Shown here: positions 14,047 to 55,077 of the stretch, one piece after another
Numbering within the stretch: position 1 is the stretch's first letter
Layout: every line of letters begins with the position of its first letter
Assembly: GCF_030684315.1 (NCBI RefSeq)
Contig: NC_081387.1
Span: forward strand, 1,054,001-1,118,000
Direction: 5' to 3'
Source: Stegostoma tigrinum
Taxonomy: Eukaryota
Length of the DNA stretch: 64,000 nt
Position numbers and translations under genes: made by a program
Notes under the pieces: model-generated
What the model was told of the DNA's origin: nothing
The model's input: the letters and a program-made list of their open reading frames with translations, nothing else
The model's database searches: none

Positions 14047-14114
14047 AAAACCTGAATTCGCAGACTCCACCCGGCAACAAGTGACGTCAGGCGACAGGTC
14101 TTTATTGTGATTGG
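14047..14114 (+). promoter_or_regulatory. Second S-X-Y-like module with a perfect CRE as X2
   Basis: AAAACCT, 16 bp, CCCGGCAAC-AAG-TGACGTCA, then GTGATTGG; S heptamer and S-X spacing identical to the class I promoter module. Confidence 0.6.
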
Positions 14115-18205: not shown

Positions 18206-20678
18206 ACAGGGGGATGGGGTGAGGGTTCTGGAATAAATAGGGAGAGAGGGGGAGGTGGACCGAAGATGGAGAGAAAAGAAGATAGGTGGAGAGGAGAGTA
18301 TAGGTGGGGAGGTAGGGAAGGGATAGGTCAGTCCAGGGAAGACGGACAGGTCAAGGTGGTGGGATGAGGTTAGTAGGTAGGAGATAGAGGTGCGGCTTGG
18401 GATGGGAGGAAGGGATGGGTGAGAGGAAGAACAGGTTAGGGAGGCTGAGACAGGCTGGACTGGTTTTGGGATGCAGTGGGTGGAGGGGAAGAGCTGGGCT
18501 GGTTTTGGGATGTGGTGGGGGAAGGGGAGATTTTGAAGCTGGTGAAGTCCACATTGATACCATCGGGCTGCAGGGTTCCCAAGCGGAATATGAGTTGCTG
18601 TTCCTGCAACCTTCGGGTGGCATCATTGTGGCACTGCAGGAGGCCCATGATGGACATGTCATCTAAAGAATGGGAGGGGCAGTGGAAATGGTTTGTGACT
18701 GGGAGGTGCAGTTGTTTGTTGCGAACCGAGCGGAGGTGTTCTGCAAAGCGGTCCCCAAGCCTCCGCTTGGTTTCCCCAATGTAGAGGAAGCCACACCGGG
18801 TACAATGGATGCAGTATACCACATTGGCAGATGTGCGGGTGAACCTCTGCTTAATATGGAAAGTCATCTTGGGGCCTGGGATGGGGGTGAGGGAGGAGGT
18901 GTGGGGGCAAGTGTAGCATTTCCTGCGGTTGCAGGGGAAGGTGCCGGGTGTGGTGGGGTTGGAGGGCAGTGTGGAGCGAACAAGGGAGTCACGGAGAGAG
19001 TGGTCTCTCCGGAAAGCAGACAGGGGTGGGGATGGAAAAATGTCTTGGGTGGTGGGGTCGGATTGTAGATGGCGGAAGTGTCGGAGGATGATGCGTTGTA
19101 TCCGTAGGTTGGTAGGGTGGTGTGTGAGAATGAGGGGGATCCTCTTTGTTGCAGTTGTGGCGGGGACGGGGTGTGAGGGATGTGTTGCGGGAAATGCGGG
19201 AGACACGGTCTTCCTCTTCCGCACCTACACAGGCCCCAAACCCCACCTCTTCCTCCGTTACATTGATGACTGTATCGGTGCCGCCTCTTGCTCCCCAGAG
19301 GAGCTCGAACAGTTCATCCACTTCACCAACACCTTCCACCCCAACCTTCAGTTCACCTGGGCCATCTCCAGCACATCCCTCACCTTCCTGGACCTCTCAG
19401 TCTCCATCTCAGGCAACCAGCTTGTAACTGATGTCCATTTCAAGCCCACCGACTCCCACAGCTACCTAGAATACACCTCCTCCCACCCACCCTCCTGCAA
19501 AAATTCCATCCCATATTTCCAATTCCTCCGCCTCCGCCACATCTGCTCCCATGATGAGGCATTCCACTTCCGCACATCCCAGATGCCCAAGTTCTTCAAG
19601 GACCGCAACTTTCCCCCCACAGTGGTCGAGAACGCCCTTGACCGCGTCTCCTGCATTTCCCACAACACATCCCTCACACCCCGCCCCCGCCACAACCGCC
19701 CAAAGAGGATCCCCCTCATTCTCACACACCACCCCACCAACCTCCGGATACAACGCATCATCCTCCGACGCTTCCGCCATCTACAATCCGACCCCACCAC
19801 CCAAGACATTTTTCCATCCCACCCCTGTCTGCTTTCCGGAGAGACCACTCTCTCCGTGACTCCCTTGTTCGCTCCACACTGCCCTCCAACCCCACACCTG
19901 GCACCTTCCCCTGCAACCGCAGGAAATGCTACACTTGCCCCCACACCTCCTCCCTCACCCCCATCCCAGGCTCCAAAGATGACTTTCCATATTAAGCAGA
20001 GGTTCACCTGCACATCTGCCAATGTGGTATACTGCATCCATTGTACCCGGTGTGGCTTCCTCTACATTGGGGAAACCAAGCAGAGGCTTGGGGACCGCTT
20101 TGCAGAATACCTCCGCTCGGTTCGCAATAAACAACTGCATCTCCCAGTCGCAAACCATTTCCACTCCCCCTCCCATTCTTTAGATGACATGTCCATCATG
20201 GGCCTCCTACAGTGCCACAATGATGCCACCCGAAGGTTGCAGGAACAGCAACTCATATTCCGCTTGGGAACCCTGCAGCCCAATGGTATCAATGTGGACT
20301 TCACCAGCTTCAAAACCTCCCCTTCCCCCACCGCATCCCAAAACCAGCCCAGTTTGTCCCTCCCCCCACTGCACCACACAACCAGCCCAGCTCTTCCCCT
20401 CCACCCACTGCATCCCAAAATCAGTCCAACCTGTCTCTGCCTCCCTAACCTGTTCTTCCTCTCACCCATCCCTTCCTCCCACCCCAAGCCGCACCTCCAT
20501 CTCCTACCTACTAACCTCATCCCACCTCCTTGACCTGTCCATCTTCCCTGGACTGACCTATCCCCTCCCAACCTCCCCACCTATACTCTCCTCTCCACCT
20601 ATCTTCTTTTTTCTCCATCTTCAATCTGCCTCCCCCTCTCTCCCTATTTATTCCAGTTCCCTCTCCCCATCCCCCTCT

Positions 20679-20706
20679 CTGATGAAGGGTCTAGGCCCGA
20701 AACGTC
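20679..20706 (+). ncRNA. Minimal hammerhead ribozyme motif in a PLE tail
   Basis: CTGATGA-A-GGGTCTAGGCCC-GAAAC-GTC. Confidence 0.6.
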
Positions 20707-20934
20707 AGCTTTTGTGCTCCTGAGATGCTGCTGGGCCTGCTGTGTTCATCCGGCCTCACATTGTATCATCTTGTGTTCTCCCAGCTTCCTGTTTGTCTGC
20801 CTTGGATTCCAGCATCTGCAGGTTTTTTTTTGTCTCTAAGTCCTTCACTGATCTCTGTCTCTGTTTCACTCTGCCGTCTCTTTGCATCCCACTCATTTAG
20901 CTCCTTGTACAGGAAACCCGCTGACTCTAGATTT

Positions 20935-20998
20935 GAAACATCACTCACATATTCTGCCTGGTAACAGCGAGGTAATGCTGACTCCAGCTACTGATTGG
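20935..20998 (+). promoter_or_regulatory. Third S-X-Y-like module
   Basis: GAAACAT, 15 bp, CCTGGTAACAG, then CTGATTGG; GTAAC-to-ATTGG offset 33 bp; ETS-like ACTTCCGG about 35 bp downstream. Confidence 0.6.
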
Positions 20999-21570
20999 TG
21001 CAAATCACACCTTGCTATTGAACCACAATGGAAACTTCCGGTCACTGGTTTGCCCAAATATTCTTCTATATATTTCTAGCCTTTCCTTCAAGTCATATTA
21101 TAAGCAGGGGCATGACTCTCTCTGTTCACAGTTCCTCACATTGAAATTGTAGTATTTAATCTGTACGATCACCGCTCGGTCTTCCCCGTAAAATTTAGCT
21201 CAGTATACTTTTCTGTAATGAATTTCATTTGCTGTGCGTTTACTGAGCCACCTTCAGTAATCCTTTTGTAGTCTGTTCCTCACCGCTACAACGTTTCCAA
21301 GTGCTATCTTGACAGTATGCCCTGAACCTCTAAGTTCAAGTTATTGATGTACATTGAAAACAGCGGCGGTCTCAGTGCGAAATCATAGACAACTCCCTCT
21401 GTTCAGTCAAACTGTATGAAATAAAATGAAAAGCATCTCTGTTCGACACATTTTTTCTGACACTTCCTGATTTCCGCATAAAATCGAAAATCGTTCCGAG
21501 AGCTGGCTGTTTTGCTTTCATACAAGTGCCAGGGAATGACCATCTCCAACAAGAGGGGAATAAAAACCAC

Positions 21571-23670
21571 AAGAATGTAGATGCTGTAAGTCTGAAACAA
21601 AACAGAAATTGCTGAAAAAGCTCAGAAGGTCTGGCAGCATCTGTGAGGAGAAAATCAGAGTTAATGTTTCGGGCTCACTGACCCTTCCTCAGTAACTGAT
21701 GGTGGCTCGGAAAACGTTGGTTTATATGCAGAAAATAGGGAGGGGGATGGAGTAGGGAATGAACGATAGGATAGAGCCTGAAGAGAGAGAAGAGCAAGGT
21801 GTGAAGCTGGAGGAACACAGCAGGCCAGGCAGCATCAGAGGAGCAGGAAAACATTTTTGAAGAAGGATCCAGAGCCAAAACATCAGCATTCCTGCTCTTC
21901 TGATGCTGCCTGGCCTGCTGTGTTCCCCCAGCTCCACATTGTGTCATCTCAGACTCCAGCATCAGCAGTTCCCACTATCTCAGAGAGAAGAGCGGTAGGA
22001 CAAAGGAGTTGCTGACGATCAGGCTGGGACGGTGAATAGTTGTTATTGGGGACTGTTCGTGACTAATAACAGGGGGTGTGTAGTGGCGGGCTACGTGGTA
22101 ACAAGGCCCGGTGTGTGGGGTAGGGGGCTGGGACATGGCAGAGTTTAGGCCTTAAAATTATTGAACTCAATATTGACTCTGGAGGGCTGTAGGGTCCCCA
22201 AACGGAAAATGATGTGTTGTTCCTCCAGCTTGCACTGGGCTTCACTGGAACACTGTAGCAAGCCGGAGACAGAGATGTTGGCCAGGGAGCAGGGTGGTGC
22301 ATTGAAGTGGCAGGCAACGGGTAGTTCAGGGTCTTTATTGTGAGCAGAATATAGAAGTTCTGTGATGCCATTGCTAAGTCTACGCTTAGTTTCTCCAACG
22401 CAGAGGAGACCACACTGTGAGCAGCGAATGCAGTAGACGAGGTTCTGGGACTGTGCAGGTGAAGTGTTGCTTCACCTGGAAGGAATGTTTGTATCTTTGG
22501 ATAGTGGGGAGGGAGGAGGTAAATGGGCAGGTGTTGCACCTTCGCCGGTTACAGGGGAATGTGCCGTTGGTCTGTGGGGAGGTGTTGGGGATGAAGGAAG
22601 TGTGGACCAGAGTGCCCCGTGGGGAATGGTCCCTGCAGAAGGTAGACAGGGGAGGGGAGGGGAGGGGAGGGAATATGTGTGTGGTGGTGGCACCTTGCTG
22701 GAGGTGACAGAAATGGCGTCTGATGATCTTCAGGACGTGGATGCTGGTGGGATGGTGGGTGAAGATAAGGGGAACCCTATTGCTGTTGCGGCGGGGTGGG
22801 GAAGAGGAGGGGTGAGATCGGAAGTGCAGGAGATGGGTTGGACCTGGTTGAGGGCCCTGTCAACAACGGAGCTAGCGAATCCTTGATTGAGAAAGAAGGT
22901 GAACATTTCAGAGGCTTCCTTGTCAAAGTTGGCCTCAAATGAACATATGTGACGGAGACGGAGGAATGAGAGAATGGGATGGAGGAAGCAGGGTGTGAGG
23001 ATGTATAGTCCAGATAGCTGCAGGAGTCGGTGGGTTTGTAACGGATATTAGAGGCCAGTCTATCCCCAAAAATGGAAACAGAAATGTCGAGCAAGGGAAG
23101 GGAAGGGAGGAGTCAGAGATAGACGAGGTGAACGTGAGGGCAGGTTGGAAATTGGAGGCGAACTTGATGTAGTTTTTAAATTCCGGATGAGAGAGAGAAG
23201 CAACACCAATGATATCATTGATATATCAGAGGAAGAGTTGTGAGTGGGGGCCAGAATTGGATTGGAACAAGGAATGTTCCATGTACCCCACAAAGAGACA
23301 GGCATAACCAGGGCCCATGTGGCTATCCAGCCATCCCTCTGAACTGAAGAAGATGACAGGAGTTAAAAGAGAAGCTGTTGAGGGTGAGGACGAACTTGGC
23401 CAAGTGGAGGAGGGTAGTGGTTCAGGTCTTTGCTCAAAGAAGGAACAGAGAGCCCTAAGACCTATCATTTACTCCTGATCCCTTACCCTGACCCTATCTT
23501 CTGCATAGAAGTCAACATTTCCCTAGCTACCATCCATTCTGAGGAAGGGTCACCAGACCAATAACGTTAACTCTGATCTCTCTCCACAGATCCTGCCAGA
23601 CCTGCTGAGATTTTCCAGTAATTTCTGGTTTTGTTCCTGATTTCCAGCATCTGCAGTTTAACCAGTTTTT
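21571..23670 (-). mobile_element. Penelope-like element of a second family, with tails in opposite orientation at both ends
   Basis: MGPGYACLFVGYME, LDISVSI..YKPTDSCSYLDY relics; related tails at 21577-21700 (-) and 23530-23656 (+); possible short TSD AAAACCA. Confidence 0.82.
21796..21981. mobile_element. 186-bp fold-back Penelope tail insertion nested in another PLE
   Basis: 12-bp TSD AGAGAGAAGAGC at 21784-21795 and 21982-21993. Confidence 0.8.
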
Positions 23671-26130: not shown

Positions 26131-26434
26131 CACATTCCAATGTTTGTTTGTTTTGCTAATGCAAAGATTCGGTAGAACCAGAGAAGGCAACATCCTGGAT
26201 TCTGCTCAGACTGAAGCCGAGCTGGGCAGAACGCAGTACATTGGAAAAAGAATATACGGAAGAAAACAGTCCACAGCATGCAGGGAAATCGGAGGGATAA
26301 AGGCTCGAACTTCAACAAATTAAAAGTTTATTGCAAACTTGTGGAAAGCAGAGACACCGTGATTGGATATCTGGGACTTTTCTTGTTATAGACTGTAACT
26401 CTCCTCACCCTAAGATACAACACTGGCACAGACA

Positions 26435-26856
26435 CGGTGTGGAGTCCAAACCCAATTTATTGTTTAAATTTAGGAATCATTTTATTATACATGGAGATAT
26501 AATGTATAACGAAGCTTCTCCCTTCACCCATCATCAAAAAATAATAAATCCCATCATCTTCCCCTCCTCCCAACCCCCAAATAATCAAACACTTCCCTCT
26601 GACCCTGAACAATTACACAAAGCAGGCTCTATCAGCTACAGCCCCCCATCGACTGGGAATGAAGGTCTCAGGACTACCCCTGTCCCCCATCTGGGGGAAC
26701 AGGCCCACGAAGGGCTGGTTGGATTGAGTGAACATGAACCTCCAGAACCAGGGAATATATTTGACATTGCAGCCAGAACATGAGTGAGCTGGAGCTCAGG
26801 TTCATTCTCCCGTCGAGTCCCTTCCCTTCAGCCTAATGATCATGAAAGAGCTTTAC
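26435..26856 (-). other. UAA: Probable non-coding 3'UTR exon 8 of the MHC class I gene with poly(A) signals
   Basis: Acceptor TTGTAACAG with AG at 26858-26857; AATAAA (minus strand) at 26486-26481 and 26461-26456 followed by GT-rich sequence; 3' end approximate. Confidence 0.6.
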
Positions 26857-27279
26857 CTGTTACAATACAACAATGAAAACAAGCCCCAGATTGAAGTGAC
26901 TAGATGAAGCTATATCCCAGAGTCAGTACAGAGATCAGTGCAAATCAAAGCTTAAATCAGCAGGTTTGCTAAATAGAGCAAACAAATTTACAATTAAGAT
27001 TCTCCCACTCTCTTATTCACGTAAACCCCCCACCCCCCACCCCCAAACTCCCCAAATCTTCATCAATTCCTCTTGCCAACTTGTTGACTGAAATCCCAGG
27101 AATACGTGTGGGACAATGAGAAGCTGCTGCGGAGGAGATACAAAGGAGATGGTTACAGAGTGAGGCCACGGGGTTAGAGACAGAAAACCCAGCAGAGCCT
27201 CCCAGAGACAATAAACTCCATCAGACATCACCCTCACCACCCCCCAAACCAGCAAATCCATCAGACCCTCCATCCCACA

Positions 27280-27890
27280 GATTTATACAGTGCAGAAATG
27301 GCCCGAGTCTGTACTGATAGAACTACCACTAAGAAAGTGTGCGAATCCCAATTTCCTGCACTTGTCCCATATCCTTGGATGTTTGATATTTAAAAGGTTT
27401 TAAGTCTTCCAGCCTCCGCTACCTTGCAGTGCGTTCCCGATTCCCACCAACCACTGAGTGAAAATATCTTTTATCCCTCCCAAATCCTTTCTGAATCTCC
27501 CGCCCCTTAGTCAAAAACTATGCCTTCTCAGGACTGATCGCTTAACCAAGGGAAACAGCTGCTCTCTATTTACCCTGTCAATGTTCCTCATAATCTTATA
27601 GACTTCAATCACATGACCCCTCCCAGTCTTCTCTGCTCGAAAGAAAACAATCCAAGTCTATCTACTCTCTCTATATAGATCAATTTCTCCGTCCCAGGCA
27701 ACATCTGTGTCCCCTCTAATGCTGTCACTTCCCTCCTGTAGTGAGGTGACTAGGCCTGCACACAATATCCCAGCGGTGTCCCGACCTACGCTCTGTACAG
27801 CTCCAACATTACCTCCTTGCAACGACTGATGGAAGGAAGTGTTCCATGTGCCTTCTTAACTATCCTATTCACGTGCTCTGCTGCCTTATC
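27280..27890 (-). mobile_element. Degenerate CR1-like LINE 3' fragment in MHC intron 7
   Basis: Similarity to the 3' portion of the 10893-11890 LINE. Confidence 0.6.
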
Positions 27891-28327
27891 CCAAGATTGT
27901 TCTGGCCCAAACTCCAACAGCCCCCTCCCCCAACACTGGCCCAGGCCCAGCAGCCCCCTCCCTCAACACCGGCCCACACCCAGCAGCCCCCTCCCTCTCT
28001 GAATCCCAGTCAGACTGGCTCGCAGGGATGGCAGCAGGAAAGCCCAGGGGCATTAAAAGGAGCAGCCAACAGGAGGCCACATCCTGGATGAGATGCTCCA
28101 ATATCTGCTTCCCCCAACACATCCTGCTCTCCACCGTAACCCACTATCTCCAGGGTCAGCAGGAGGAGGACAGACTTGAAGCTCAGTGGGGAATTGTGTG
28201 AGCTGTTGTTTCACACACAGTCAGACAGTGAGTGGGAGAAGCAGACACTGGGCTCGGATTCCACCCTGGGATTGTACAGGAACCTCCCTCTCCCCAGCAT
28301 CTTCTACTCCCAGAAAGAGTCCTACCT

Positions 28328-28374
28328 CTAAGCAGTGGCAGAGGAGCTTGAAGAGGCGTCGCCTCTATCAGAAG
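28328..28374 (-). CDS. UAA: MHC class I exon 7 coding part (TSDRGDASSSSSATA-stop); exon ends at 28326
   Basis: AACAG acceptor; SD/Ser-rich class I tail; TAG at 28330-28328 followed 2 nt later by a GTAGG donor; the repaired CDS totals 1029 nt (342 aa). Confidence 0.88.
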
Positions 28375-28638
28375 CTGTTAATGGAAAGAAACATATTTAA
28401 AAATTGTTTACCATCAGGGAACACAGACAGGGTCACATGGTGGGAGGCGGGGTCAACATGGACAGAGGAGATATAGAGACAAATAAAGGGGGTTTGACAC
28501 AGTCTGACACATACAAACACACAGAGACAGCAGAAGTATCAGTCAGAAATGAAGACAGTGTAATAAAGGGCTCAATGCACATACAGAAAGAAGAATGCTG
28601 TTTCATTCAATAACAAACAGTGACTGGGGTAAACTTAC

Positions 28639-28671
28639 TTTTTGCTGGATTGTAGCCAGTCTTCTGGCCTG
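28639..28671 (-). CDS. UAA: MHC class I exon 6 (cytoplasmic, AGQKTGYNPAK)
   Basis: 33 bp, phase 1-1, TACAG acceptor and GTAAGT donor; contains the class I YxxA motif. Confidence 0.88.
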
Positions 28672-29469
28672 CTGTAAAACAAAGAAAGCTTAGTTACTGA
28701 CCACACCCCCACAGTCAGGGCAGAGATGTGGGAGGCTGAGACTGTTTACTCCCAGCCAGCCACATCACCCAAAAGTAGTTCTTACTGACAGCTGAGTAGA
28801 GGGGTAAGAGGGGGCCAGTGCACAAAACTGCGCCCCCCCCCACCCTGCTTGCCATCCGCCCCCTCCCCCGCAGCCCGAGCCTGTCCGACATCCCCCCATC
28901 CTCTCAAGAGTCTGAAATCCTTCTCGATTTCTTCATGCTACCCATGAAATCTCCACTGGCCATTCGCCTCTCAATTACTCTCTCTTATTACTACATTGTC
29001 ATCATCATTAATCCCCAAGGCTATGCCTCCCTCATGACCATTACTGAGTAGATGTAGCCCCTGGTCTAGATCGAGCAGCCCTGTATACTGTCTCCTATCC
29101 TCCACACTCAACTTTCCATCTGTACAATTTGTTCCCCACGCTCCACATGTTTGTGTGAAGAAAGCTCATTTGATTCACAGTTTCTAATCTGTCCTCCTAC
29201 TCTAACATGACACTCTCACTTTCAAATTTTACTCTCACTATTTAATTATTTCACATCTTTTAAGTTCTCCTGTAACTGAAAGTTCCCAAATATCCAACTT
29301 CCCACTCTCCTCCCACTGAACCCTGACGTTAACACTTCTTCATCCGCATTGCCAGCCCATTCCCATTCAATCTTACCCCCTCACTCTCCAACACAACTGC
29401 CCTATCTCTCCCCACACCCAGAGTCCGCTCCCACAGTATATACCTGCCCATTCTCACCCAAACTCCTAC

Positions 29470-29571
29470 CTCTCTTTTTGTACCAGATAAGCCCACCGAC
29501 GGCCGCAAGAATCAGCAAGAGGGCAACGACAACACCAATTATAATCGGGAGCATGGAGCTGGTCTTTAGCT
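29470..29571 (-). CDS. UAA: MHC class I exon 5 (connecting peptide/transmembrane), 102 bp
   Basis: ELKTSSMLPIIIGVVVALLLILAAVGGLIWYKKR; T-tract CAG acceptor, GTAGGA donor; phase 1-1. Confidence 0.92.
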
Positions 29572-32500
29572 CTGAAAAAAATAAACCGACAAAAAGGTCA
29601 GCAATACAAGACAGAACACAGGCGAACAGGGGCACACTGTCCCAGCCCCTGGCTGCTAAAACACCAATTGATTGCTAACTTGACTAAATAGCAAGGGATG
29701 CTGGGTACGTAGGCCAAGTAAAACTCTGAAGTCGCAAAACCCACAGACCAGATACACTGCAAACACAGCAGCCAGAGAGGAAGAAGGCAGCTCTGCAGAC
29801 CCAGAGCAACTACGTACATCTACAAGAGACTCGGGAAGTGTTGTAAAGCTTAAGGAGCCAAATTGGATTGGAGAAAATATGCTTAGTGTTGAAGATTATT
29901 GTAACTTTATAATTGATAAAGTTGAGATTGTTTTGCATTGTTACTGGCTTCTGTTCATATTGATTTGACCGCTTCATTACTGTGGGACACCTGGGCAAAT
30001 TCATTCATAACATTCAGGTCAGAGGTATCTGAGCTGTTTAAGGGGGAATGAGACAATATTTGGCATCCTGGGGTGGTTTTTGTTAAGAAGTGACCATCAG
30101 GTCCTCTGAAGTTGTACCTATCAGCCTGATATCCTCACAATTCAGGCAGAGCTGTTATTAACAAGATAAAAATCCGATGTGAAAGCCAGAGTTCAAGTGA
30201 GTAACTGAGGATATAGGCAGCTGGCGAGAAATTGACCCATCAGCCAGGAGACCTATTGCCAAAGTGAGGAAAGTATGAGCTGGAAAAGGGTGATGGGGTA
30301 CAGAGGGTCTCTGAGGAAGGCAGCCTGGAGGGAGATAGATGTTTGTCTCGTCTAGAGAAGCCTTGGGGACATATTGGACTCCGTGAACAAAACAAGGAAG
30401 CTTTTATTTTAACCTCCTGTTGTCCCTGTCCCAGAAATGTTTGATGGGAGCTTTATTTTACTTACTTTCAGTTCCAAAGAGTAGAAGAGATTTCCATTTG
30501 AATTGTAAACTCTAGTTGTCCCTGACCTGGGAGTGTTCCACGGCGACAGAGCTGACTGGGTATGGTTTTCGGTTTACTTTGAGTTTGAATAAGTAGAGGA
30601 AAGTTTACTCTGTATTTCAAGCCCTGTCCCTACCCCAGAAGTGTCTGGTAGGGACAGGGTCAAAGGAACTTTATTTTGAGTTCAACAGAGTTGACAGACC
30701 TTGGAGTTCCAAAGGTTGGAGGAAATGTTACTTTACTGTTTAAAAGGAGCAGAGACATTGGCAGCTGTTGGCGGCCCTACCTACTCTACTAACCCGATCA
30801 AAATGACTGCTAGGTGTTTTAAACAGTACCTGGCAGACAGTGGGTCAGAAACCCAGGGCCAGGCATGGGAAACTCTACAGTCAGGCAACGAGAAGGGGTT
30901 AAAGACCTATCACTGTTTAGAGTTAGAAAGGGTCACTGTGCTCTAGTTCCACACATCCAAGACTTCAGGGAGCTGTACCAAGAATTTAGCTAAAGCCTTA
31001 TCCCAACGGCAGCCACTTCCCATAACACAGAAGAGAAACCCAGTAAAGGACGCAGCAATAACCTCCTTGCTACAAAATTGGGAAAAATATTCCATTGTCT
31101 GATATGGAACGACACTCTCAGACAATACCTTTCTTTTTAAAAATGGCCCAAATGGATAGAATTCTGTAGCAGCCAGAGTGACCCAGGACCATGGGGACCA
31201 TAGGCCACGGCATATGGCAAGAAACACATAGGAAATAAGGAACAATAGGAAATAAGGAACAATAGGAAATAAGGAACAACAGGGACCAGGATAACCACAG
31301 CAACAGCGTGGCATGTAGCCTTGGGGATTACTGCAGCTGACCAGCTGGGATTAAGGTCGCTATGGGGTGATTAGAAATCATTCGTGACGAATTGGAAAAG
31401 TTAATACCTGTAGTTAAACCGCAGGGCACCAGAATACAGGAAAGCCTAACTCACGTGGGACAGTTCCAGTCACAATTCAAAGGAGCCTATTTTAGTGAGA
31501 AGTGGACCATTGGGGACCAGAAGGCCAGCCTCAGCATACACTGACAAGTTGGAACAGTGTCGGGAGCTTCAAGCAGCTGTAAAGTTTTCCCAGCCTGCAT
31601 CGCACAGCAAGGTCGCAATATGGAGCAAAGTGCCAGGGGAACAAATACAATCTCCAGTGAACCAGCTCCGAGCCCAGAATGACAGTGTGTGCCTTTGGGG
31701 TCCTACCTCTGCAGGAAACAAGAGACCCCACACTGACACATCCACATGCAATCTGCCTTCACCCCACTGATCGGGGACCCTTCTATATCTCCCAGGTTAA
31801 CGGAGCTTTCAACTGCCCCATCCCCGACCCACAGTCCATGAATGCTGTGACCACCCAGTGTCACACAGGTACACAACACCCATCGCGGCCATCCAGCTGG
31901 TGGATGTCACCAAAAAGGTGACACTGTTTACTTCCTCTGCAGACCCAAACACTGGTATGTTATTTGGATGAACCAAGCCTGTACTGACTGTTAGTTATAT
32001 ACAGGCTGGATGCAGTCCATCCCCCGAGGACCAGCAACCGGGGAGGGGGAGCCCTGGATGAGATGAAGGTGCCGTAGGGCAGGATAATGCCCAATAGTTG
32101 CTCCCACATAAATACAGTGTCACCTTTTTGGTGACATCCACCAGCTGGATGGCTGCCATGGGTGTTGTGTACGTGTGAGACACTGGGTGGTCTCCCCGAC
32201 CCTTAGTGTTCACTAACTGCACTCCCTGATCTCTGCCCTCACTGTCTTATTCCCTCGATAAAACTCCCCCCACTGCCATGCCCATCGAACACACTCCATA
32301 CCCCGACCACAAAACCTGTCTGGTGCCCAAATCGTCTTCTCTCACACTCACAAACTCCTCCACTCTCTCTCATACACTCAATCTCTCACTTCACCCCCTC
32401 TCTCTCATTCAACTTCACAATCTCATTTCTACCATGAAACACTCTCGTTTTCTCCTTTCCTCTCTGTGCTTCCCTCCCTTTCACTCATGCTCTCACTCAG

Positions 32501-32630
32501 CCTGCCTCTCTCCCACTCTCTCCCTCGTACGTCTCTCTGGGCCAGCCTGTCTCGGCCTGCCTGCTTCCTGAGCTGTCATTCTGTCTTGCTCACTCTCTCA
32601 GCTTGTCTGTTTCTCTGTCTACCTCACTCT

Positions 32631-32832
32631 CCCAGTCCGTCTGTCCCCACCGCTCGCCCGGCCTGCCCGCCCCAGTCCGTCTGTCCCCACCGCTCGCCCG
32701 GCCTGCCCGCCCCAGTCCGTCTGTCCCCCTCGCTCGCCCGGCCTGCCCGCCCCAGTCCGTCTGTCCCCCTCGCTCGCCCGGCCTGCCCGCCCCAGTCCGT
32801 CTGTCCCCCTCGCTCGCCCGGCCTGCCCGCCC
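32631..32832 (+). repeat. 40-bp GC-rich minisatellite, 5 copies
   Basis: CCCAGTCCGTCTGTCCCC(A/C)(C/T)CGCTCGCCCGGCCTGCCCGC at an exact 40-bp period. Confidence 0.95.
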
Positions 32833-32839
32833 ACTCATG

Positions 32840-34230
32840 AATACCGACAACAAAGGGGAACATCCCAACAGCTTTGCCCAGAGACTCTGGATCCAATTTG
32901 TCTGGGATTTCAGGGAACTGACCCACACCTCTCTTACCACCAAACAATAGAAAAAAAACTGGGTGTGCACCCTTATCTCCCCGCCTCAGAAAGAGGGAGG
33001 GACGCACGTCTAGGATTTGACCTCCTCGGACACTCCTGTAATACGGCTTGGGTCCTCTGCAAATTAATCACTATATGGGAAACGGAGTTAAGGGCGCAGT
33101 AATCATCCAGAAAATCAGTTTGCATAAGCAGGGTCCGGACTTGGAGGAATGGAAGAAGGAATACACTAAGGAATACCACACAGACTCCCCCTCCACAGGG
33201 CTTCCCTGCTCCTAGAAAAAAGGGAACTCCCAAAAACAAACTTTAAGCCGAATATGTGGTATAACTGAGGCCGAACTGGCCATTTCATTTGGGACTGCCA
33301 GGCGTCTAGGATTCCAACCTGGCCCTGGGAAATTCGGAAAAAGGGGCTGACGCCCAGAGTACCACGCTGGCAGCAACAGATGGAGCGAAAACAGGCCTTG
33401 ACTTATACATGGAGGATGATTGGGGCAACCCCATAATTCCTTTAAAGGTCCTGAGTGCACAAGCTGGCCTACGGGGCACATTTATTCTATTGGCCTTTTC
33501 TGGTTTTCTTAACAAATGGGGTGAGGACAGAAACGGGGTGATATTTGGACCATTTGTCAAGTTTAAAATATTACACAGAACACTGTCAGATACCAGACAA
33601 AGATATTTTCAGAAATTACTCTTGTTCTCTTTTTAAGAAGCACACCAGAGCGGCGACTGCAAGACAGCAATGTGACTCTTACAGAGTGTTTACTGTGCAT
33701 GATGTAAAAATGTAACACGAGCACAAGGGAAACTGATGTATCCAGGATACCTGCGCCGTGACCCACCATGGAGTGTGTCAATGGGACTTTCTGCATCCAC
33801 CCTGGGAAGTCAGTGATATATGGGTGGAACCATCAGCTCGTGGTGTACAGGAAGCCCAAGGGGAATTGCACACCAATGTGGGCTTCTCAGAGAATGGGTG
33901 CAGGTCAGTAGGATGCTGACTACATGGATTATGTAACTAATCCCAGCCATAATGGATGTATCGGGGATACAGTTATCGGAGTGATGTCCTTCCCCATTGA
34001 AAACAAACATTCTGTTCCCACCTGGCAAAGGGATGAGGGGCAGGGAAATAAGGGGAAAAACACAGAGCAGCACTCACCCTGATATACCTCAGAACGCTGA
34101 ATATTGACATTGCAGGCCGGGAAAGACGGATATCCCATCGGATCAGTATGGGCTCCATAAATAATATGCGCACACACACAGCAGCTACATGATAGTGATA
34201 ACCCTGAGATACCAGTCTATTTTCACTTCT
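32840..34230 (+). mobile_element. Highly degenerate LTR-retroelement/ERV-like relic in MHC intron 4
   Basis: Decayed Gag zinc knuckle W-Y-N-*-G-R-T-G-H-F-I-W-D-C (CX2CX4HX4C) at 33257-33298; boundaries uncertain. Confidence 0.45.
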
Positions 34231-34746
34231 GTTTGTTCGAGTTACTGAACTTTGTCCATGTTGGGTACATAGGCCAAGTAAAACACCGAAATCAGAAAAC
34301 CTGCAGAACAGATACACTGCAAACACAGCAGCCTGGTGCTAATGATATGAGCATCATATAAAAGGCAGCAGTGTTCCTGAGTAGACATTTCTATAGTCAC
34401 CCAGCATTCCCTACACCTACCAGTCTTACCTGTCATCCTAACAGGAACATATTGTCCTGGCACCGGGGAGGCAACGCACCATTCTCATGTCTTGCTGTTG
34501 GCTGCAGAAATGTCTGTCTGTGCCTCTGGACAGACGGTCCCCGATCACAATCATTCACTTGGAGCCTGACATACCCCTCGTGACAGTAGAGACAGTCCCA
34601 GTACCAGAAACACGGCGATGCTATACCGAGAGACTGTGAACCCCTACATTTTCCAAACCACCGTTCGGGTTCGGGATCGGGGATCGGGGATCGGGACCGC
34701 CTGCTGGAAACACACCGTATCTTCACACTTTGAGGGAGATCCTTAC

Positions 34747-35010
34747 CATAAAACACAACCAGCTTCTGCCCCAATCCGTTGTGATCCACCTCACAGGAGT
34801 ACTTGGCCTGGGAATTCGGGTCAAACTCCATCCATCTGTGGATCTGGTAGGATCCATCGTGATTGGGTCGGACTCCAGTGGATTCTGTCTCATCGACCTT
34901 CACACCGTCTCGGAACAGGTTTACTTCAATGGACTGAGGGTAGAACCCAGTGGCGACACAGGAGAGCTGTTTATTATCCCTCACAGAGGTAAACGTCACG
35001 GAGGGTTTCA
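34747..35010 (-). CDS. UAA: MHC class I exon 4 (alpha3, C1-set Ig domain), 264 bp
   Basis: VKPSVTF...LSCVATGFYPQSIEV...VRPNHDGSYQ...YSCEVDHNGL; C1-set motifs; CGCAG acceptor, GTAAGG donor. Confidence 0.96.
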
Positions 35011-35593
35011 CTGCGAGAGAGTGAGGGAGGTTAGATGGGGAGGGGAGACAGAGACTACACACAGCGACTCTCACCCTCAGCCCCAGCCTCTCCTATCACC
35101 CACCAAAACACTCCCAGCAACGCCCAACCTCAGTCTCTCCTCCCCAACTCACTGTCTCAGCCCAACAACCACCCCACCCACAGCGTTCACAGCTTGCACT
35201 CCCGGACCCCTACCCTCAGTGTCTCACTCTAACACGCCCCCGACCCTCGGTGTGCACTAACTGCACTCCCCGACCTCTGTCCTCACTGTCTCATTCCCTC
35301 GAAAAAACTCCCCCCACACTCCATACCCCGACCACAAAACCTGTCCGTGCCCCAATCGTCTTCTCTCACACTCACAAACTCCTCCACACGTTCTCTCACA
35401 CTCTCCTTTTCTCCTTTCCTCCTCGGTGCTTCCCTCCCTCTCACTCTCGCTCCCTCGACCTGTCCGTCCCTGTCCGCCTGTCCCTCGTGCGCGCTCACTC
35501 TGCTTGTCCCTGTCCATCCCACTCGCTCGCTCCACCCGTCAGTCCATCTGTCCCTCTCCCCTCCCTCACTTGCTCCACTTTTCTCTACCTGCC

Positions 35594-38500
35594 AGTCCGT
35601 CCGTCCGTCCCCATCACCGCTCCCCCGTCCCGGCCCGGCCCGTCCGTCCGTCCGTCCCCATCACCGCTCCCCCGTCCCGGCCCGGCCCGTCCGTCCGTCC
35701 GTCCCCATCACCGCTCCCCCGTCCCGGCCCGGCCCGTCCGTCCGTCCGTCCCCGTCACCGCTCCCCCGTCCCGGCCCGGCCCGTCCGTCCGTCCCCGTCA
35801 CCGCTCCCCCGTCCCGGCCCGGCCCGTCCGTCCGTCCCCGTCACCGCTCCCCCGTCCCGGCCCGGCCCGTCCGTCCGTCCCCGGCCCGGCCCGTCCGTCC
35901 CCGTCACCGCTCCCCCGTCCCGTCCCGGCCTGTCCGTCCGTCCGTCCGTCCCCATCACCGCTCCCCCGTCCCGTCCCGGCCTGTCCGTCCGTCCGTCCCC
36001 GTCACTGCTCCCCCGGCCCGTCCGTCCGTCCCCGTCACCGCTCCCCCGTCCCGGCCCGGCCCATCCGTCCGTCACCGTCACCGCTCCCCCGGCCCGGCCT
36101 GGCCCGTCCGTCCGTCCCCGTCACCGCTCCCCCTTCCCGGCCTGGCCTAGCCCGGCCCGTCCGTCCGTCCCCGTCACCGCTCCCCCGGCCCGGCCCGGCC
36201 CGTCCGTCCGTCCCCGTCACCGCTCCCCCGTCCCGGCCCGGCCTGGCCCGTCCGTCCGTCCCCGTCACCGCTCCCCCGTCCTGGCCCGGCCCGGCCCGTC
36301 CGTCCGTCCCCGTCACCGCTCCCCCGTCCCGTCCCGGCCCGGCCTGGCCCGTCCGTCCGTCCCCGTCACCGCTCCCCCGTCCCGGCCCGGCCTGGCCCGT
36401 CCGTCCGTCCCCGTCACCGCTCCCCCGTCCCGGCCCGGCCTGTCCGTCCGTCCCCCTCACCGCTCCCCCGGCCCGGCCCGTCCGTCCGTCCCCGTCACCG
36501 CTCCCCCGTCCCATCCCGGCCCGTCCGTCCACCTCACCACTCCCCCGGCCCGGCCCGGCCCGTCCGTCCGTCCCCGTCACCGCTCCCCCGTCCCGGCCCG
36601 GCCCGTCCTTCCGTCCCCGTCCCGGCCCGGCCCGTCCGTCCCCTTCACCGCTCCCCCGTCCCGGCCTGTCCGTCCGTCCGTCCCCGTCACCGCTCCCCCG
36701 GCCCGTCCGTCCGTCCCCGTCACCGCTCCCCCGTCCCGGCCCGGCCCATCCGTCCGTCCGTCCCCGTCACCGCTCCCCCGTCCCGGCCCGGCCCGTCCGT
36801 CCGTCCCCGTCACCGCTCCCCCGTCCCGGCCCGGCCCGTCCGTCCGTCCCCGTCACCGCTCCCCCGTCCCGGCCCGGCCCGTCCGTCCGTCCCCGTCACC
36901 GCTCCCCCGGCCCGGCCCGGCCCGTCCGTCCGTCCCCGTCACCGCTCCCCCGTCCCGGCCCGGCCCGTCCTTCCGTCCCCGTCCCGGCCCGGCCCGTCCG
37001 TCCCCTTCACCGCTCCCCCGTCCCGGCCCGGCCCATCCGTCCGTCCCCCTCACCGCTCCCCCGGCCCGGCCCGGCCCGTCCGTCCGTCCCCGTCACCGCT
37101 CCCCCGTCCCGGCCCGGCCCGTCCTTCCGTCCCCAACACCGCTCCCCCGTCCCGGCCCGGCCCATCCGTCCGTCACCGTCACCGCTCCCCCGTCCCGGCC
37201 CGGCCCATCCGTCCGTCACCGTCACCGCTCCCCCGTCCCGGCCCATCCGTCCGTCACCGTCACCGCTCCCCCGTCCCGGCCCATCCGTCCGTCACCGTCA
37301 CCGCTCCCCCGTCCCGGCCCGGCCCGTACGTCCGTCCCCATCACCGCTCCCCCGTCCCGGCCCGGCCTGGCCCGTCCGTCCGTCCCCCTCACCGCTCCCC
37401 CGTCCCGTCCGTCCCCGTCACCGCTCCCCCGTCCCGTCCCGGCCCGGCCCGGCCCATCCTTCCGTCCCCGTCACCGCTCCCCCTTCCCGGCCTGGCCCGG
37501 CCCGTCCGTCCGTCCCCGTCACCGCTCCCCCGTCCCATCCCGGCCCGTCCGTCCGTCCCCGTCACCGCTCCCCCGTCCCATCCCGGCCCGTCCGTCCCCG
37601 TCACCGCTCCCCCGTCCCGGCCTGTCCGTCCGTCCGTCCCCGTCACTGCTCCCCCGGCCCGTCCGTCCGTCCCCGTCACCGCTCCCCCTTCCCGGCCTGG
37701 CCCGGCCCGGCCCATCCGTCCGTCCCCCTCACCGCTCCCCCGTCCCATCCCGGCCCGTCCGTCCGTCCCCGTCACCGCTCCCCCGTCCCGTCCCGGCCCG
37801 GCCCGGCCCGGCCCATCCGTCCGTCCCCCTCACCGCTCCCCCGTCCCATCCCGGCCCGTCCGTCCCCGTCACCGCTCCCCCTTCCCGGCCTAGCCCGGCC
37901 TGGCCCGTCCGTCCGTCCCCGGCACCGCTCCCCCGTCCCGGCCAGGCCCATCCGTCCGTCCCCGTCACCGCTCCCCCTTCCCGGCCCGGCCCATCCGTCC
38001 GTCCCCCTCACCGCTCCCCCGTCCCATCCCGGCCCGTCCGTCCGTCCCCGTCACCGCTCCCCCGTCCCATCCCGGCCCGTCCGTCCCCGTCACCGCTCCC
38101 CCGTCCCGTGCCGGCCCGTCCGTCCGTCCCCGTCACCGCTCCCCCGTCCCGTCCCATCCCGGCCCGTCCGTCCGTCCCCGTCACCGCTCCCCCTTCCCGG
38201 CCCGTCCGTCCGTCCCCGTCACCGCTCCCCCTTCCCGGCCCGGCCCATCCGTCCGTCCCCCTCACCGCTCCCCCGTCCCATCCCGGCCCGTCCGTCCGTC
38301 CCCGTCACCGCTCCCCCGTCCCATCCCGGCCCGTCCGTCCCCGTCACCGCTCCCCCGTCCCGTGCCGGCCCGTCCGTCCGTCCCCGTCACCGCTCCCCCG
38401 TCCCATCCCGGCCCGTCCGTCCCCGTCACCGCTCCCCCGTCCCGTGCCGGCCCGTCCGTCCGTCCCCGTCACCGCTCCCCCTTCCCGGCCCGTCCGTCCG

Positions 38501-41500
38501 TCCCCGTCACCGCTCCCCCTTCCCGGCCTGGCCCAGCCCGGCCCGTCCGTCCGTCCCCGTCACCGCTCCCCCGTCCCGGCCCGGCCCATCCGTCCGTCCC
38601 CGTCACCGCTCCCCCGTCCCGGCCCGGCCCGGCCCGTCCGTCCGTCCCCGTCACCGCTCCCCCGTCCCGGCCCGTCCGTCCGTCCCCGTCACCGCTCCCC
38701 CGTCCCGGCCCGGCCCGGCCCGTCCGTCCGTCCCCGTCACCGCTCCCCCGTCCCGGCCCGTCCGTCCGTCCCCGTCACCGCTCCCCCGTCCCGGCCCGGC
38801 CCGGCCCGTCCGTCCGTCCCCGTCACCGCTCCCCCGTCCCGGCCCGGCCCGTCCGTCCGTCCGTCCCCGTCACCGCTCCCCCGTCCCGGCCCGGCCCGTC
38901 CGTCCGTCCCCGTCACCGCTCCCCCGTCCCGGCCCGGCCCGGTCCGTCCGTCCGTCCCCGTCACCGCTCCCCCGTCCCGGCCCGTCCGTCCGTCCCCGGC
39001 ACCGCTCCCCCGTCCCGGCCCGGCCCGTCCGTCCGTCCCCGTAACCGCTCCCCCGTCCCGGCCCGTCCCGGCCCGTCCGTCCGTCCCCGTCACCGCTCCC
39101 CCTTCCCGGCCCGTCCGTCCGTCCCCGTCACCGCTCCCCCTTCCCGGCCTGGCCCAGCCCGGCCCGTCCGTCCGTCCCCGTCACCGCTCCCCCGTCCCGG
39201 CCCGGCCCATCCGTCCGTCCCCGTCACCGCTCCCCCGTCCCGGCCCGGCCCGGCCCGTCCGTCCGTCCCCGTCACCGCTCCCCCGTCCCGGCCCGTCCGT
39301 CCGTCCCCGTCACCGCTCCCCCGTCCCGGCCCGTCCGTCCGTCCCCGTCACCGCTCCCCCGTCCCGGCCCGTCCGTCCGTCCCCGTCACCGCTCCCCCGT
39401 CCCGGCCCGTCCGTCCGTCCCCGTCACCGCTCCCCCGTCCCGGCCCGGCCTGGCCCGTCCGTCCGTCCCCGTCACCGCTCCCCCGTCCCGGCCCGGCCTG
39501 GCCCGTCCGTCCGTCCCCATCACCGCTCCCCCTTCCCGGCCCGGCCTGGCCCGTCCGTCCGTCCCCGTCACCGCTCCCCCTTCCCGGCCTGGCCCGGCCC
39601 GGCCCATCCGTCCGTCCCCGTCATCGCTCCCCCGTCCCATCCCGGCCCGTCCGTCCCCGTCACCGCTCCCCCGTCCCATCCCGGCCCATCCGTCCGTCCC
39701 CGTCACCTCTCCCCCGTCCCATCCCGGCCTGGCCCGTCCGTCCGTCCCCGTCACCGCTCCCCCGTCCCGGCCCGTCCGTCCGTCCCCGTCCCCGCTCCCC
39801 CATCCCGGCCCGGCCTGGCCCGTCCGTCCCCGTCACCGCTCCCCGTCCCATCCCGGCCCGTCCGTCCCCGTCACCGCTCCCCCGTCCCATCCCGTCCGTC
39901 CGTCCCCGTCACCGCTCCCCCTTCCCGGCCTGGCCCGGCCTGGCCCGTCCGTCCGTCCCCGTCACCGCTCCCCCGTCCCGTCCCGGCCCGTCCGTCCGTC
40001 CCCGTCACCGCTCCCCCGTCCCGGCCCGTCCGTCCGTCCCCGTCACCGCTCCCCCGTCCCGGCCCGGCCCGGCCCGTCCGTCCGTCCCCGTCACCGCTCC
40101 CCCGTCCCGGCCCGTCCGTCCGTCCCCGTCACCGCTCCCCCGTCCCGGCCCGTCCGTCCGTCCCCGTCACCGCTCCCCCGTCCCGGCCCGGCCCGGCCCG
40201 TCCGTCCGTCCCCGTCACCGCTCCCCCGTCCCGGCCCGTCCGTCCGTCCCCGTCACCGCTCCCCCGTCCCGGCCCGGCCCGGCCGTCCGTCCCCGTCACC
40301 GCTCCCCCGTCCCGGCCCGTCCGTCCGTCCCCGTCACCGCTCCCCCGTCCCATCCCGGCCCGTCCGTCCCCGTCACCGCTCCTCCGTCCCGGCCCGGCCT
40401 GGCCCGTCCCCGTCACCGCTCCCCCGTCCCGGCCCGGCCCGGCCCGTCCGTCCGTCCCCGTCACCGCTCCCCCGGCCCGGCCCGTCCGTCCGTCCCCGTC
40501 ACCGCTCCCCCGTCCCGGCCCGGCCTGGCCCGTCCCCGTCACCGCTCCCCCGTCCCGGCCCGGCCCGGCCCGTCCGTCCGTCCCCGTCACCGCTCCCCCG
40601 TCCTGGCCCGGCCCGGCCCGTCCGTCCGTCCGTCCGTCCCCAACACCGCTCCCCCGTCCCGGCCCGGCCCGTCCGTCCGTCCCCCTCACCGCTCCCCAGG
40701 CCCGGCCCGTCCGTCCGTCCCCGTCACCGCTCCCCCGTCCCATCCCGGCCCGTCCGTCCCCGTCACCGCTCCTCCGTCCCGGCCCGGCCTGGCCCGTCCC
40801 CGTCACCGCTCCCCCGTCCCGGCCCGGCCTGGCCCGTCCGTCCGTCCCCGTCACCGCTCCCCCGTCCCATCCCGGCCCGTCCGTCCCCGTCACCGCTCCT
40901 CCGTCCCGGCCCGGCCTGGCCCGTCCGTCCGTCCCCGTCACCGCTCCCCCGTCCCGGCCCGTCCGTCCGTCCCCGTCACCGCTCCCCCGTCCCGGCCCGT
41001 CCGTCCGTCCCCGTCACCGCTCCCCCGTCCCGGCCCGTCCGTCCGTCCCCGTCACCGCTCCCCCGTCCCGGCCCGGCCTGGCCCGTCCCCGTCACCGCTC
41101 CCCCGTCCCGGCCCGGCCCGGCCCGTCCGTCCGTCCCCGTCACCGCTCCCCCGGCCCGGCCCGGCCCGTCCGTCCGTCCCCGTCACCGCTCCCCCGTCCC
41201 GGACCGGCCTGGCCCGTCCCCGTCACCGCTCCCCCTTCCCGGCCCGGCCCGTCCGTCCGTCCCCGTCACCGCTCCCCCTTCCCGGCCCGGCCCGTCCGTC
41301 CGTCCCCGTCACCGCTCCCCCTTCCCGGCCCGGCCCGTCCGTCCGTCCCCGTCACCGCTCCCCCTTCCCGGCCCGGCCCGTCCGTCCGTCCCCATCACCG
41401 CTCCCCCGTCCCGGCCCGGCCTGGCCCATCCGTCCGTCCCCGTCACCGCTCCCCCGTCCCATCCCGGCCCGTCCGTCCCCGTCACCGCTCCCCCTTCCCG

Positions 41501-44290: not shown

Positions 44291-44351
44291 TCTCTGCTCC
44301 CCCTGTCCCCGCTGTCCCCCACACAGTGTCCCCCCCCTGTCTCACACTGAC

Positions 44352-44624
44352 CTGGTCTCAGTTCTGTCTCTCCGTGTCTGAGGTATCTCTTCAGCCACTC
44401 GATACACGTTCCCTCCAGGTAACCCTTTTTCCGCTGGTTTAGTCCCTGATCCTGCTCCCACTTGTTCTTGGTGATCTGCCCCGCAGTGACCGGGGTGGCC
44501 CACACCATCCTGTCCTTGTCGAAGCTGATGAAGTCCTTGTAGTCCCAGCCGAACTGATAAAACCCCGCGGTGCTGCCGCCGTCCCGGAGCTCACAGCCGT
44601 ACACCAGCTGCCACGAGTGGATCC
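44352..44624 (-). CDS. UAA: MHC class I exon 3 (alpha2 domain), 273 bp
   Basis: GIHSWQLVYGCELRDGG...DFISFDKDRMVW...ITKNKWEQ...GYLEGTCIEWLKRYL; two Cys plus F123, T143, K146, W147, Y159, Y171 equivalents; CCACAG acceptor, GTCAGT donor. Confidence 0.96.
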
Positions 44625-44646
44625 CTGTGGGTCACAGAGAGAGACA

Positions 44647-44778
44647 GCCAATCACAGGGAGGGATCGCACGGGGCGGCCAATCACAGGGAGGGATCGCAC
44701 GGGGCGGCCAATGACAGGGAGGGATCGCACGAGGCGGCCAATGACAGGGAGGGATCGCACGGGGGCGGCCAATGACAG
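44647..44778 (+). repeat. 30-bp tandem repeat (about 4.4 copies) in MHC intron 2
   Basis: GCCAAT(C/G)ACAGGGAGGGATCGCACGGGGCG. Confidence 0.93.
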
Positions 44779-44825
44779 CCCCGCCCCGGCCCGGGCCCGA
44801 TCCCCGCGGATCCCCTCTCACTTAC

Positions 44826-45085
44826 CCCCGGTCTGGTTGGTCCGTTCGCTCAGGATCTGGATCGCGGTCTTTCCCCCGACTCCCAGCCCCGCAGGTTCTG
44901 TGTCTCTCTGTCCCAATAATCCGGCCCCTCACGCTCCGCCATCCAGCGCTGCCGGGGGATGTCCCTCCGGATCTCGCTGTCGTAGTAATCAATCGGTTTC
45001 TCATCCACGTACCCGACCGCCACAAACTCCGGGACTCCCGGCAGGGGGGTGGTCCAGGTGTGAACATACCGGAGACTGTGAGACC
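44826..45085 (-). CDS. UAA: MHC class I exon 2 (alpha1 domain); 260 bp with an apparent 1-nt deletion at the G-run 44873-44877
   Basis: Manual translation GSHSLRYVHTWTTPLPGVPEFVAVGYVDEKPIDYYDSEIRRDIPRQRWMAEREGPDYWDRETQNLRGWESG/(G)KTAIQILSERTNQTG; Y7, Y59, R84 and the N86 glycosylation sequon NQT are present; acceptor TTCAG, donor GTAAG. Confidence 0.93.
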
Positions 45086-45132
45086 CTGAAACACAGAGAC
45101 AGAGAGATCAGGGGGCGATCCCGCCGGGAGAC

Positions 45133-45570
45133 ACCCCCCACAGCCCGGTCTCACCCCCCCCCCCCACACAGCCCGGTCTCACACCCCCCCCCACAGCCCG
45201 GTCTCACCCCCCCCCCCACAGCCCGGTCTCACCCCCCCCCCCACAGCCCGGTCTCACCCCCCCCCCCCCACAGCCCGGTCTCACACCCCCCCCCCCCCAC
45301 AGCCCGGTCTCACACCCCCCCCCCCCACAGCCCGGTCTCACCCCCCCCCCCCCCCACAGCCCGGTCTCACCCCCCCCCCCCCCCACAGCCCGGTCTCACC
45401 CCCCCCCCCCCTCCCCACAGCCCGGTCTCACACCCCCCCCCCCCACAGCCCGGTCTCACACCCCCCCCCCCCCCCCCACAGCCCGGTCTCACCCCCCCCC
45501 CCCACAGCCCGGTCTCACCCCCCCACCCCACAGCCCGGTCTCACACCCCCCCCTCCCCGCACAGCCCGGG
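45133..45570 (+). repeat. C-tract minisatellite (CACAGCCCGGTCTCAC-Cn) at the 3' end of intron 1
   Basis: About 16 copies with variable poly-C. Confidence 0.92.
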
Positions 45571-45682
45571 TGCCCGTCCCGCCGGCCCCCGGAACCGAGA
45601 CACAGCGATCAGATCAAACCCGCCAACGCAATCTCAGAACCACCTCCAGCTGCTGGCACAGACACCGCGAAATAACGTAAAA

Positions 45683-54794: not shown

Positions 54795-55077
54795 TTAATG
54801 CCCAATACAGAGCCTGGCACTGAGACCCTCCCTGATCAGGAGTTAATGCTCCAATACCCAGGCTGGCACTGAGACCCTCTCTATCAGGGGTTAATGCTCC
54901 AATACCCAGGCTGGCACTGAGACCCTCTCTATCAGGGGTTAATGCTCCAATACCCAGGCTGGCACTGAGACCCTCTCTGATCAGGGGTTAATGCTCTAAT
55001 ACCCAGGCTGGCACTGAGATCCTCTCTGATCAGGGGTTAATACTCCAATACCCAGGCTGGCACTGAGATCCTCTCTG
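54795..55077 (+). repeat. 48/49-bp VNTR (about 6 copies) adjacent to the exon 1 donor
   Basis: CCAATACCCAGGCTGGCACTGAGACCCTCTCT(G)ATCAGGGGTTAATGCT at 54851, 54899, 54947 and onward. Confidence 0.92.

Follow-up and report, generated by a model that had tools for sequence, protein, structure and literature searches.

Do copies of an MHC class I promoter's regulatory boxes that lie kilobases beyond the 3′ end of the gene act as distal enhancers? The question arises at a locus in shark DNA, of which we analysed a stretch of 64,000 nucleotides (the window). One host protein-coding gene was detected in it, an MHC class I gene, and two reversed copies of that gene's promoter motif set lie 5 and 12 kb beyond its 3′ end. 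Our main subject is the closer copy, the 21-kb module, in which an S-like, an X, an X2-like and a Y box follow one another in that order on the + strand (Table 1). Among living lineages with an MHC, that of the sharks is the oldest.

Anatomy of the 21-kb module

The motifs named in the original prediction, TGTTTCACTCT, GAAACAT, CCTGGTAAC, CTGATTGG and ACTTCCGG, are all present where it placed them. It had also described the X box 9-mer CCTGGTAAC as identical to that of the class I promoter, and the window indeed holds exactly two exact copies, at 20957-65 (+) and in the class I promoter at 55492-84 (-). The X box that begins at 20957 is a putative RFX-type site. The Y box CTGATTGG follows as foreseen, at a measured offset of 34 rather than 33 bp; the same distance, from the start of X to the start of Y, is 35 in the class I promoter. 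With an X box length of 14 bp, an offset of 34 leaves a gap of 20 bp between X and Y.

The S-like box is weak and shifted: GAAACAT matches the promoter's AAAACCT at five of seven positions, stands one base closer to X than the promoter's 16 bp and occurs 13 times in 43 kb. Among four local modules, two at the promoter and two distal, the X and Y boxes are best in the 21-kb module, and its S is the weakest. We take TGTTTCACTCT at 20862-72 to be ISRE-like, the X2-like CGAGGTAA to be CRE-like, and other sites of the surrounding island to be kB-like, ETS-like or IRF-like. TTTCACT[CT]T sites number three in 43 kb, and TGACG does not occur in the island that holds the module. The ETS-like ACTTCCGG at 21034-41 is the sole copy in 43 kb; the other kB-, ETS- and IRF-like motifs of the island are each individually common.

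Table 1 Features of the locus, in window coordinates
Feature	Position	Strand	Details
Distal module at 14 kb	14047..14114	+	S AAAACCT 14047-53; X CCCGGCAAC 14070-78; CRE TGACGTCA 14082-89; Y GTGATTGG 14107-14, offset 37
Penelope-like element, left neighbour of island	18917..20781	+	weak GIY-YIG match, below Pfam cut-off, E 0.011
Low-copy island core with 21-kb module	20848..21518		671 bp; from self-BLAST and sequencing runs
ISRE-like TGTTTCACTCT	20862..20872	+	weak; sequence match
S-like GAAACAT	20935..20941	+	15 bp before X
X box (putative RFX-type)	20957..20970	+	first nine bases CCTGGTAAC (20957-65) as in promoter
X2-like CGAGGTAA	20968..20975	+	both related versions read TGAGGTAA
Y box CTGATTGG (reversed CCAAT, ATTGG core)	20991..20998	+	offset 34, counted from start of X
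Overlapping kB-like GGAAACTTCC and ETS-like ACTTCCGG (21034-41)	21030..21041	+	sequence match
CpG-rich, AT-rich half of island	21128..21498		second ETS-like site, two IRF-like sites
Diverged relative of left element, right neighbour of island	22103..23270		tblastn pieces, 47-50% identity
MHC class Ia-like gene	26327..55140	-	ATG 55140; exons 55140-092, 45085-44826, 44624-352, 35010-34747, 29571-470, 28671-639, 28374-326, 27126 to poly(A) signal 26332-27
Class I promoter module P2	55347..55411	-	S-like TCAACCT; X CCCAGAAAC at 55388; Y CTCATTGG, offset 34
Class I promoter module P1	55450..55515	-	S AAAACCT; X CCTGGTAAC; Y CTGATTGG, offset 35; IRF site 55529-38

A low-copy island between repeats

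The module had been placed in an island of roughly 750 bp between two Penelope-like elements, about 5.5 kb past the class I poly(A) site. The flanking holds, with an element on the left and its diverged relative on the right; the self-BLAST-unique stretch of the window measures 794 bp (20782-21575), its low-copy core 671 bp, and the poly(A) signal at 26332-27 puts the distance at 5.3 kb. The left element has many copies in the window, both island ends are high-copy repeat fragments (thousands of repeat contigs in the sequencing runs), and short repeat fragments separate the island from its right neighbour at 22103-23270. The core itself is not a repeat, judged by its depth in the sequencing runs, to which run X2 contributes two versions and runs X5/X6 a single one. 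At 21795-21984 there is an inverted transposon-tail pair, a long hairpin that several miRNA models matched below threshold, and similar pairs occur at 17028-17128 and 18034-18177.

Between 21128 and 21498 the CpG observed/expected ratio is 1.05 at 40% GC. Across 367 comparison windows from the remaining self-BLAST-unique DNA, the ratio has a median of 0.27 and does not exceed 0.57; this CpG-rich half suggests that the copy in the window escaped germline methylation.

We searched the same region for genes. In self-BLAST-unique DNA from 2.7 to 26.3 kb, none of 174 frames of at least 35 aa matched a domain at the Pfam cut-off, which two class I control exons did reach; four matches were sub-threshold (E 0.017-0.048). 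A Pfam-detectable coding exon under either distal module was rejected on this result, though a first exon without coding sequence may lie there. The open frame over the 14-kb module matched two repetitive bacterial-type proteins at about 30% identity, with a score summed over repeats, which we attribute to chance. Rfam gave 19 matches below gathering score in 13-27 kb and none in the island core, and a repeat search returned only short chance-level pairs. A metagenome match to the 20-base stretch over the Y box, at one locus (L001; 23 shared bases, 58% GC), was likewise discarded as chance.

The class I gene and the other local modules

The alpha2 and alpha3 exons of the gene match Pfam MHC_I and C1-set. 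Its closest relatives among 22 that were fetched are P0025 of the whale shark (77% identity over part of alpha1, 90% over alpha3) and P0007 of the nurse shark, named non-classical (86% over alpha3), and on this closeness, measured as sequence identity rather than on a tree, we label it class Ia-like. Exon 2 (44826-45085, -) contains a frame change in a G run, then a stop, with both frames matching relatives; the gene may be a pseudogene, or the assembly may be wrong at this point. Introns 2 and 1 are taken up by very long tandem arrays (35400-44350, about 9 kb, 80% GC; 45700-52110, about 6 kb, 40% GC), and shorter arrays lie at 5030-6295, 12050-13805 and 24060-24620. Four ray class I-like proteins (P0002-P0005; 476-1391 aa) gave scores two to four times that of a single match, which suggests repeated alpha1/alpha2 domains or merged gene models. 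Elasmobranchs are reported to carry Ia-like genes, in numbers that vary, close to the true Ia gene and amid zinc-finger genes (PMC10751288).

Two modules stand at the promoter. About 100 bp downstream of P1 is the tandem S-X-Y-like module P2, after which comes a direct CCAAT at 55327; P2 scores 18 of 24 in the scan described below, a level that chance yields about once per window. Of the distal modules, the one at 14 kb is the most complete, with the promoter's S heptamer in full (7/7), 16 bp before X as in the promoter, and a perfect CRE. AAAACCT has 13 copies in the window on both strands. The 14-kb module and this shared S heptamer are better leads than the 21-kb module. Just left of the 14-kb module, 13815-13905 (-) has acceptor-like and donor-like flanks (GTGAGT near 13817) and an ATG near 13886; it could be the first or a non-coding exon of a - strand gene, and a search for a protein match to it found none.

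The boxes and their spacing exceed chance

Taken singly, the boxes are unremarkable in the window: the X 9-mer has 12 matches with at most one mismatch against 17.7 expected, and there are 3 Y boxes against 4.0 expected. For the pair we trained an order-3 Markov model on the non-tandem DNA of the window and took offsets of 33-36. Under this model the exact X 9-mer and Y 8-mer are expected together 5e-5 times per 64 kb, which makes about three chance occurrences in an assumed genome of 3.5 Gb. Allowing one X mismatch raises the expectation to 1.5e-3 per 64 kb, and a loose pair (two mismatches and ATTGG) is common, at 1.3 per 64 kb. The objection that spaced matches of this quality might be common genome-wide thus fails for exact matches, as extrapolated from the window model.

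We also scanned every position on both strands (about 128,000) with only the promoter's S, X and Y boxes as template, using spacings (S 15-17, Y 33-37) that were chosen after the hits had been seen and that favour those hits somewhat. The promoter scores 24 of 24. The 21-kb module reaches 22, the 14-kb module 21 and the best independent site after these 18, and among 20 million null positions none reached 21 and three reached 20. The predicted array of distal S-X-Y-type sites is borne out in that the 21-kb and 14-kb sites are the two best non-self positions of the scan. The 21-kb module is real, is not a product of chance and is part of a small array.

The likeness between the 21-kb module and the promoter is confined to the boxes, with flanks and spacers that do not match (combined p 0.51) and a local alignment score that was reached by 36 of 300 shuffles. 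A recent promoter duplication was rejected as the module's source, there being no significant likeness outside the boxes, and similarities seen by eye in pairwise alignments were lost after shuffling. The two distal modules are weakly alike outside their boxes (p 0.013, best of six pairs, uncorrected).

Related versions of the module

Twelve sequencing runs were listed, of which six, from two organisms, contain the stretch or part of it, with no RNA run among those that do; four of the twelve were compared, one of which, the bisulfite run X7, contributed a single read, on the repeat end. Run X2, a second sample of the same species, contains both an identical version and a second version about 87-89% alike, at similar depths (21-27). 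Contigs of the run from unrelated repeat-flanked places have depths of 18-27, a likeness that favours two loci over two alleles, but depth is a poor guide and the second version is possibly a deeply diverged haplotype. Runs X5 and X6, from one sample of a related species, contain one version, about 92% alike. Among the 40 differences listed, of 116, 38 are common to the second version and the related species.

The X box differs in both related versions at three of its 14 bases (20961, 20967 and 20968, among the listed differences; p ~0.04 for that many changes). In both, the X 9-mer reads CCTGTTAAC, the changed base being the G of the GTAAC half-site, so that the identity of the 9-mer with the promoter is peculiar to the window's version. 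The first base of the S-like box is also changed in both versions, as is 21040 in the ETS-like box, where the ACTTCC core is kept, and the second version in run X2 has a base inserted behind 20867, in the ISRE-like site. From the ends of contigs 4, 6, 7 and 8, and assuming that the contigs were built with 31-letter words, the second version would have other bases at 21033 and at 20998, where the Y box ends, and that box is probably broken. For the related species, 13 unlisted differences in 20920-21403 give a chance of 0.13 that the ATTGG core is hit, and the Y box is probably intact there.

The module had been called preserved, a description that the comparison does not bear out: the 43 motif bases together have three changes against 2.5 expected, as often as the rest (from the 38 listed shared differences; a low-power test with three sequences and no outgroup). 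The 180-bp stretch singled out in the original prediction has 11 of the listed shared changes, compared with 27 in the other 483 bp. None falls between 20969 and 21039 (longest gap, p 0.39), and a candidate conserved block from X2 to a TATA-like box (two changes in 140 bp) was rejected because its scan statistic is not significant (p 0.15). To call the site unconserved would nevertheless be only half right: the island is present in the related species, and it is the motif bases that carry no extra constraint. Ten CpGs of the window copy are absent in both other versions, and two differ in the opposite way (p 0.04; listed shared differences). Three sequences without an outgroup leave two readings of the perfect X box in the window: it may be ancestral, with the others decayed, or newly arisen.

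Possible roles of the module

We favour, with somewhat less than even confidence, the explanation that the 21-kb module is a distal RFX/NF-Y enhancer of the class Ia-like cluster. The basis for this is the motifs, their spacing, their non-chance occurrence and the low copy number, together with the lack of a detectable coding exon; moreover, boxes that match the promoter amid flanks and spacers that do not are the pattern that selection on the boxes would leave. By analogy with mammalian class II S′-Y′ elements, X would be bound by RFX, X2 by a CREB/ATF factor and the Y box by NF-Y, and the bound module would recruit CIITA or NLRC5. Neighbouring kB-, ETS- and IRF-like sites might add inducible input. 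The complex would then loop to a promoter of the class I cluster, either that of this gene, 34 kb away, or that of a gene left of the window, in which case the modules would be upstream. Factor binding, enhancer activity and target gene are all steps that we infer. The factor assignments of such modules are established (PMC7866136, PMC7753138), and the whale shark has CIITA and NLRC5 orthologs (PMC8455134).

In favour of an enhancer we count the second distal module, which has the same orientation, the promoter S heptamer and a perfect CRE, as well as the island's being kept in a related species and the CpGs kept by the window copy. Against it we count motif bases that show no sign of constraint, the changes in the X box, the probable Y break in the second version, the weak and shifted S, the frame change of the linked gene and the lack of an intergenic NLRC5-bound enhancer in the mouse MHC. 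Because the low-power conservation test did not reveal constraint, and because S, X2 and the RFX match are less clear than order, orientation and spacing, we classify the element by its anatomy, as an S-X-Y-type module for which a function is plausible, and not as a functional distal enhancer. A locus-control role, as the original prediction suggested, would mean that linked genes are expressed independently of position and according to copy number.

The module may instead be a promoter, which we think unlikely, belonging to an unannotated + strand transcript, one that would be non-coding and point at the 3′ end of the class I gene, or left orphaned among transposons by a lost gene. The + strand order would suit this, since S, X, Y and kB/ETS sites are followed by a TATA-like TATATA at 21067 and then by the CpG-rich 370 bp, and in mammals S-Y modules are found 50-100 bp ahead of the start site (PMC2677874). 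Intergenic transcripts flank distal S′-Y′ elements (PMC1904273), and shark Ia-like genes are reported amid zinc-finger genes (PMC10751288). However, coding exons were absent from both strands in the frames tested, the module itself contains the core's sole strong + strand donor pattern (20969), and the class I promoter is itself CpG-poor (0.20), a standard by which the CpG-rich half is not promoter-like.

We also regard as improbable that the module is a once-functional relic, copied with class Ia-like gene blocks and now decaying without function. That one species has two versions, with a likeness of about 87-89%, and that changes are even over motifs and flanks speaks for decay, as do the probable Y-box loss and altered ISRE-like site of the second version, the weak S and the linked gene's frame change, and the weak likeness of the distal modules outside their boxes (p 0.013) would fit an old duplication. 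Yet in the window copy the X 9-mer and the Y 8-mer are both perfect, despite flanks that have lost all detectable likeness to the promoter, and this copy has more CpGs than the other versions, which, with three sequences and no outgroup, may be the decaying ones.

Finally, a chance match, or motifs brought by a transposon, is very improbable and largely refuted: loose X and ATTGG pairs do occur about 1.3 times per 64 kb, the spacing windows were chosen after the hits were seen and the exact 9-mer is missing from both related versions, but a pair with even one X mismatch is expected only 1.5e-3 times per window, two independent sites score at least 21 where none of 20 million null positions does, and in neither species is the core of the island a repeat.

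If the distal modules are enhancers, a wider claim follows that we consider doubtful, namely that shark class I clusters are under an array of distal S-X-Y enhancers, an arrangement described until now for mammalian class II genes only. Were it true, long-range enhanceosome control and the shared S heptamer AAAACCT would predate the class I/class II regulatory split, and modules would duplicate and die together with Ia-like gene copies. If the modules are inactive, they record how regulatory modules turn over while a class I cluster duplicates, a modest result. The four modules at one locus also provide a first local consensus for S, X, Y and their spacing.

Comparison with known S-X-Y systems

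With a 20-bp X-Y gap, for an X box of 14 bp, and an S-like box 15 bp before X, the 21-kb module falls within the spacing of mouse targets. In these, X and Y are 20-22 bp apart and S lies up to 16 bp from X (PMC4374748). The order, orientation and spacing of the S-X-Y module given in PMC4374748 and PMC5437515 are those found here. Conserved promoter motifs have been reported for teleost genes of both class I and class II (PMC6523485). In the literature searched, which left most subscription journals outside its scope, we found no shark S-X-Y element and no distal S-Y enhancer for class I or for sharks, and the words 'promoter' and 'enhancer' do not occur in the available text of PMC10751288.

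S-Y modules also exist outside the MHC, at RAB4B, ZNF672 and TPP1 among others (PMC1802633, PMC2278383). They show that a well-spaced module can act for genes other than those of the MHC, a zinc-finger gene among them, although these modules are at annotated promoters. The atypical module of BTN3A has only its Y box reversed, at a shorter distance (PMC7753138), whereas the shark module is reversed as a whole.

At mammalian class II loci, distal S-Y enhancers are bound by RFX and CIITA (PMC1802633, PMC2677874, PMC7866136). They include the S′-Y′ element of HLA-DRA at -2.3 kb, S′-Y′ and Y″-S″ of Ii, and elements #2, #4, #6 and #8 (PMC1802633 Table 1), and distal S′-Y′ class II enhancers are also treated in PMC2677874, PMC1904273 and PMC2278383. 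Like them, the shark distal modules have promoter-like spacing and number several to a locus, and they are putatively intergenic, candidate full-length S-X-X2-Y arrangements. The distal element of HLA-DRA is inverted, and the shark modules are similarly reversed relative to their gene. Unlike the class II elements, they belong to a shark, lie 3′ of the gene and have a class Ia-like gene as their nearest, and any binding or activity of theirs is predicted.

The NLRC5-bound mouse modules reported in PMC4374748 are all promoter-associated, and no intergenic one was found there in the MHC. The shark modules resemble these class I modules in their S-X and X-Y distances, which are in range, and in their class I context; they differ in being putatively intergenic, and the likeness covers the spacing, not the distinctive S box that decides NLRC5 use. 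If the distal modules prove active, distal enhanceosome control would not be a speciality of mammalian class II genes, in contrast to the NLRC5 result in the mouse.
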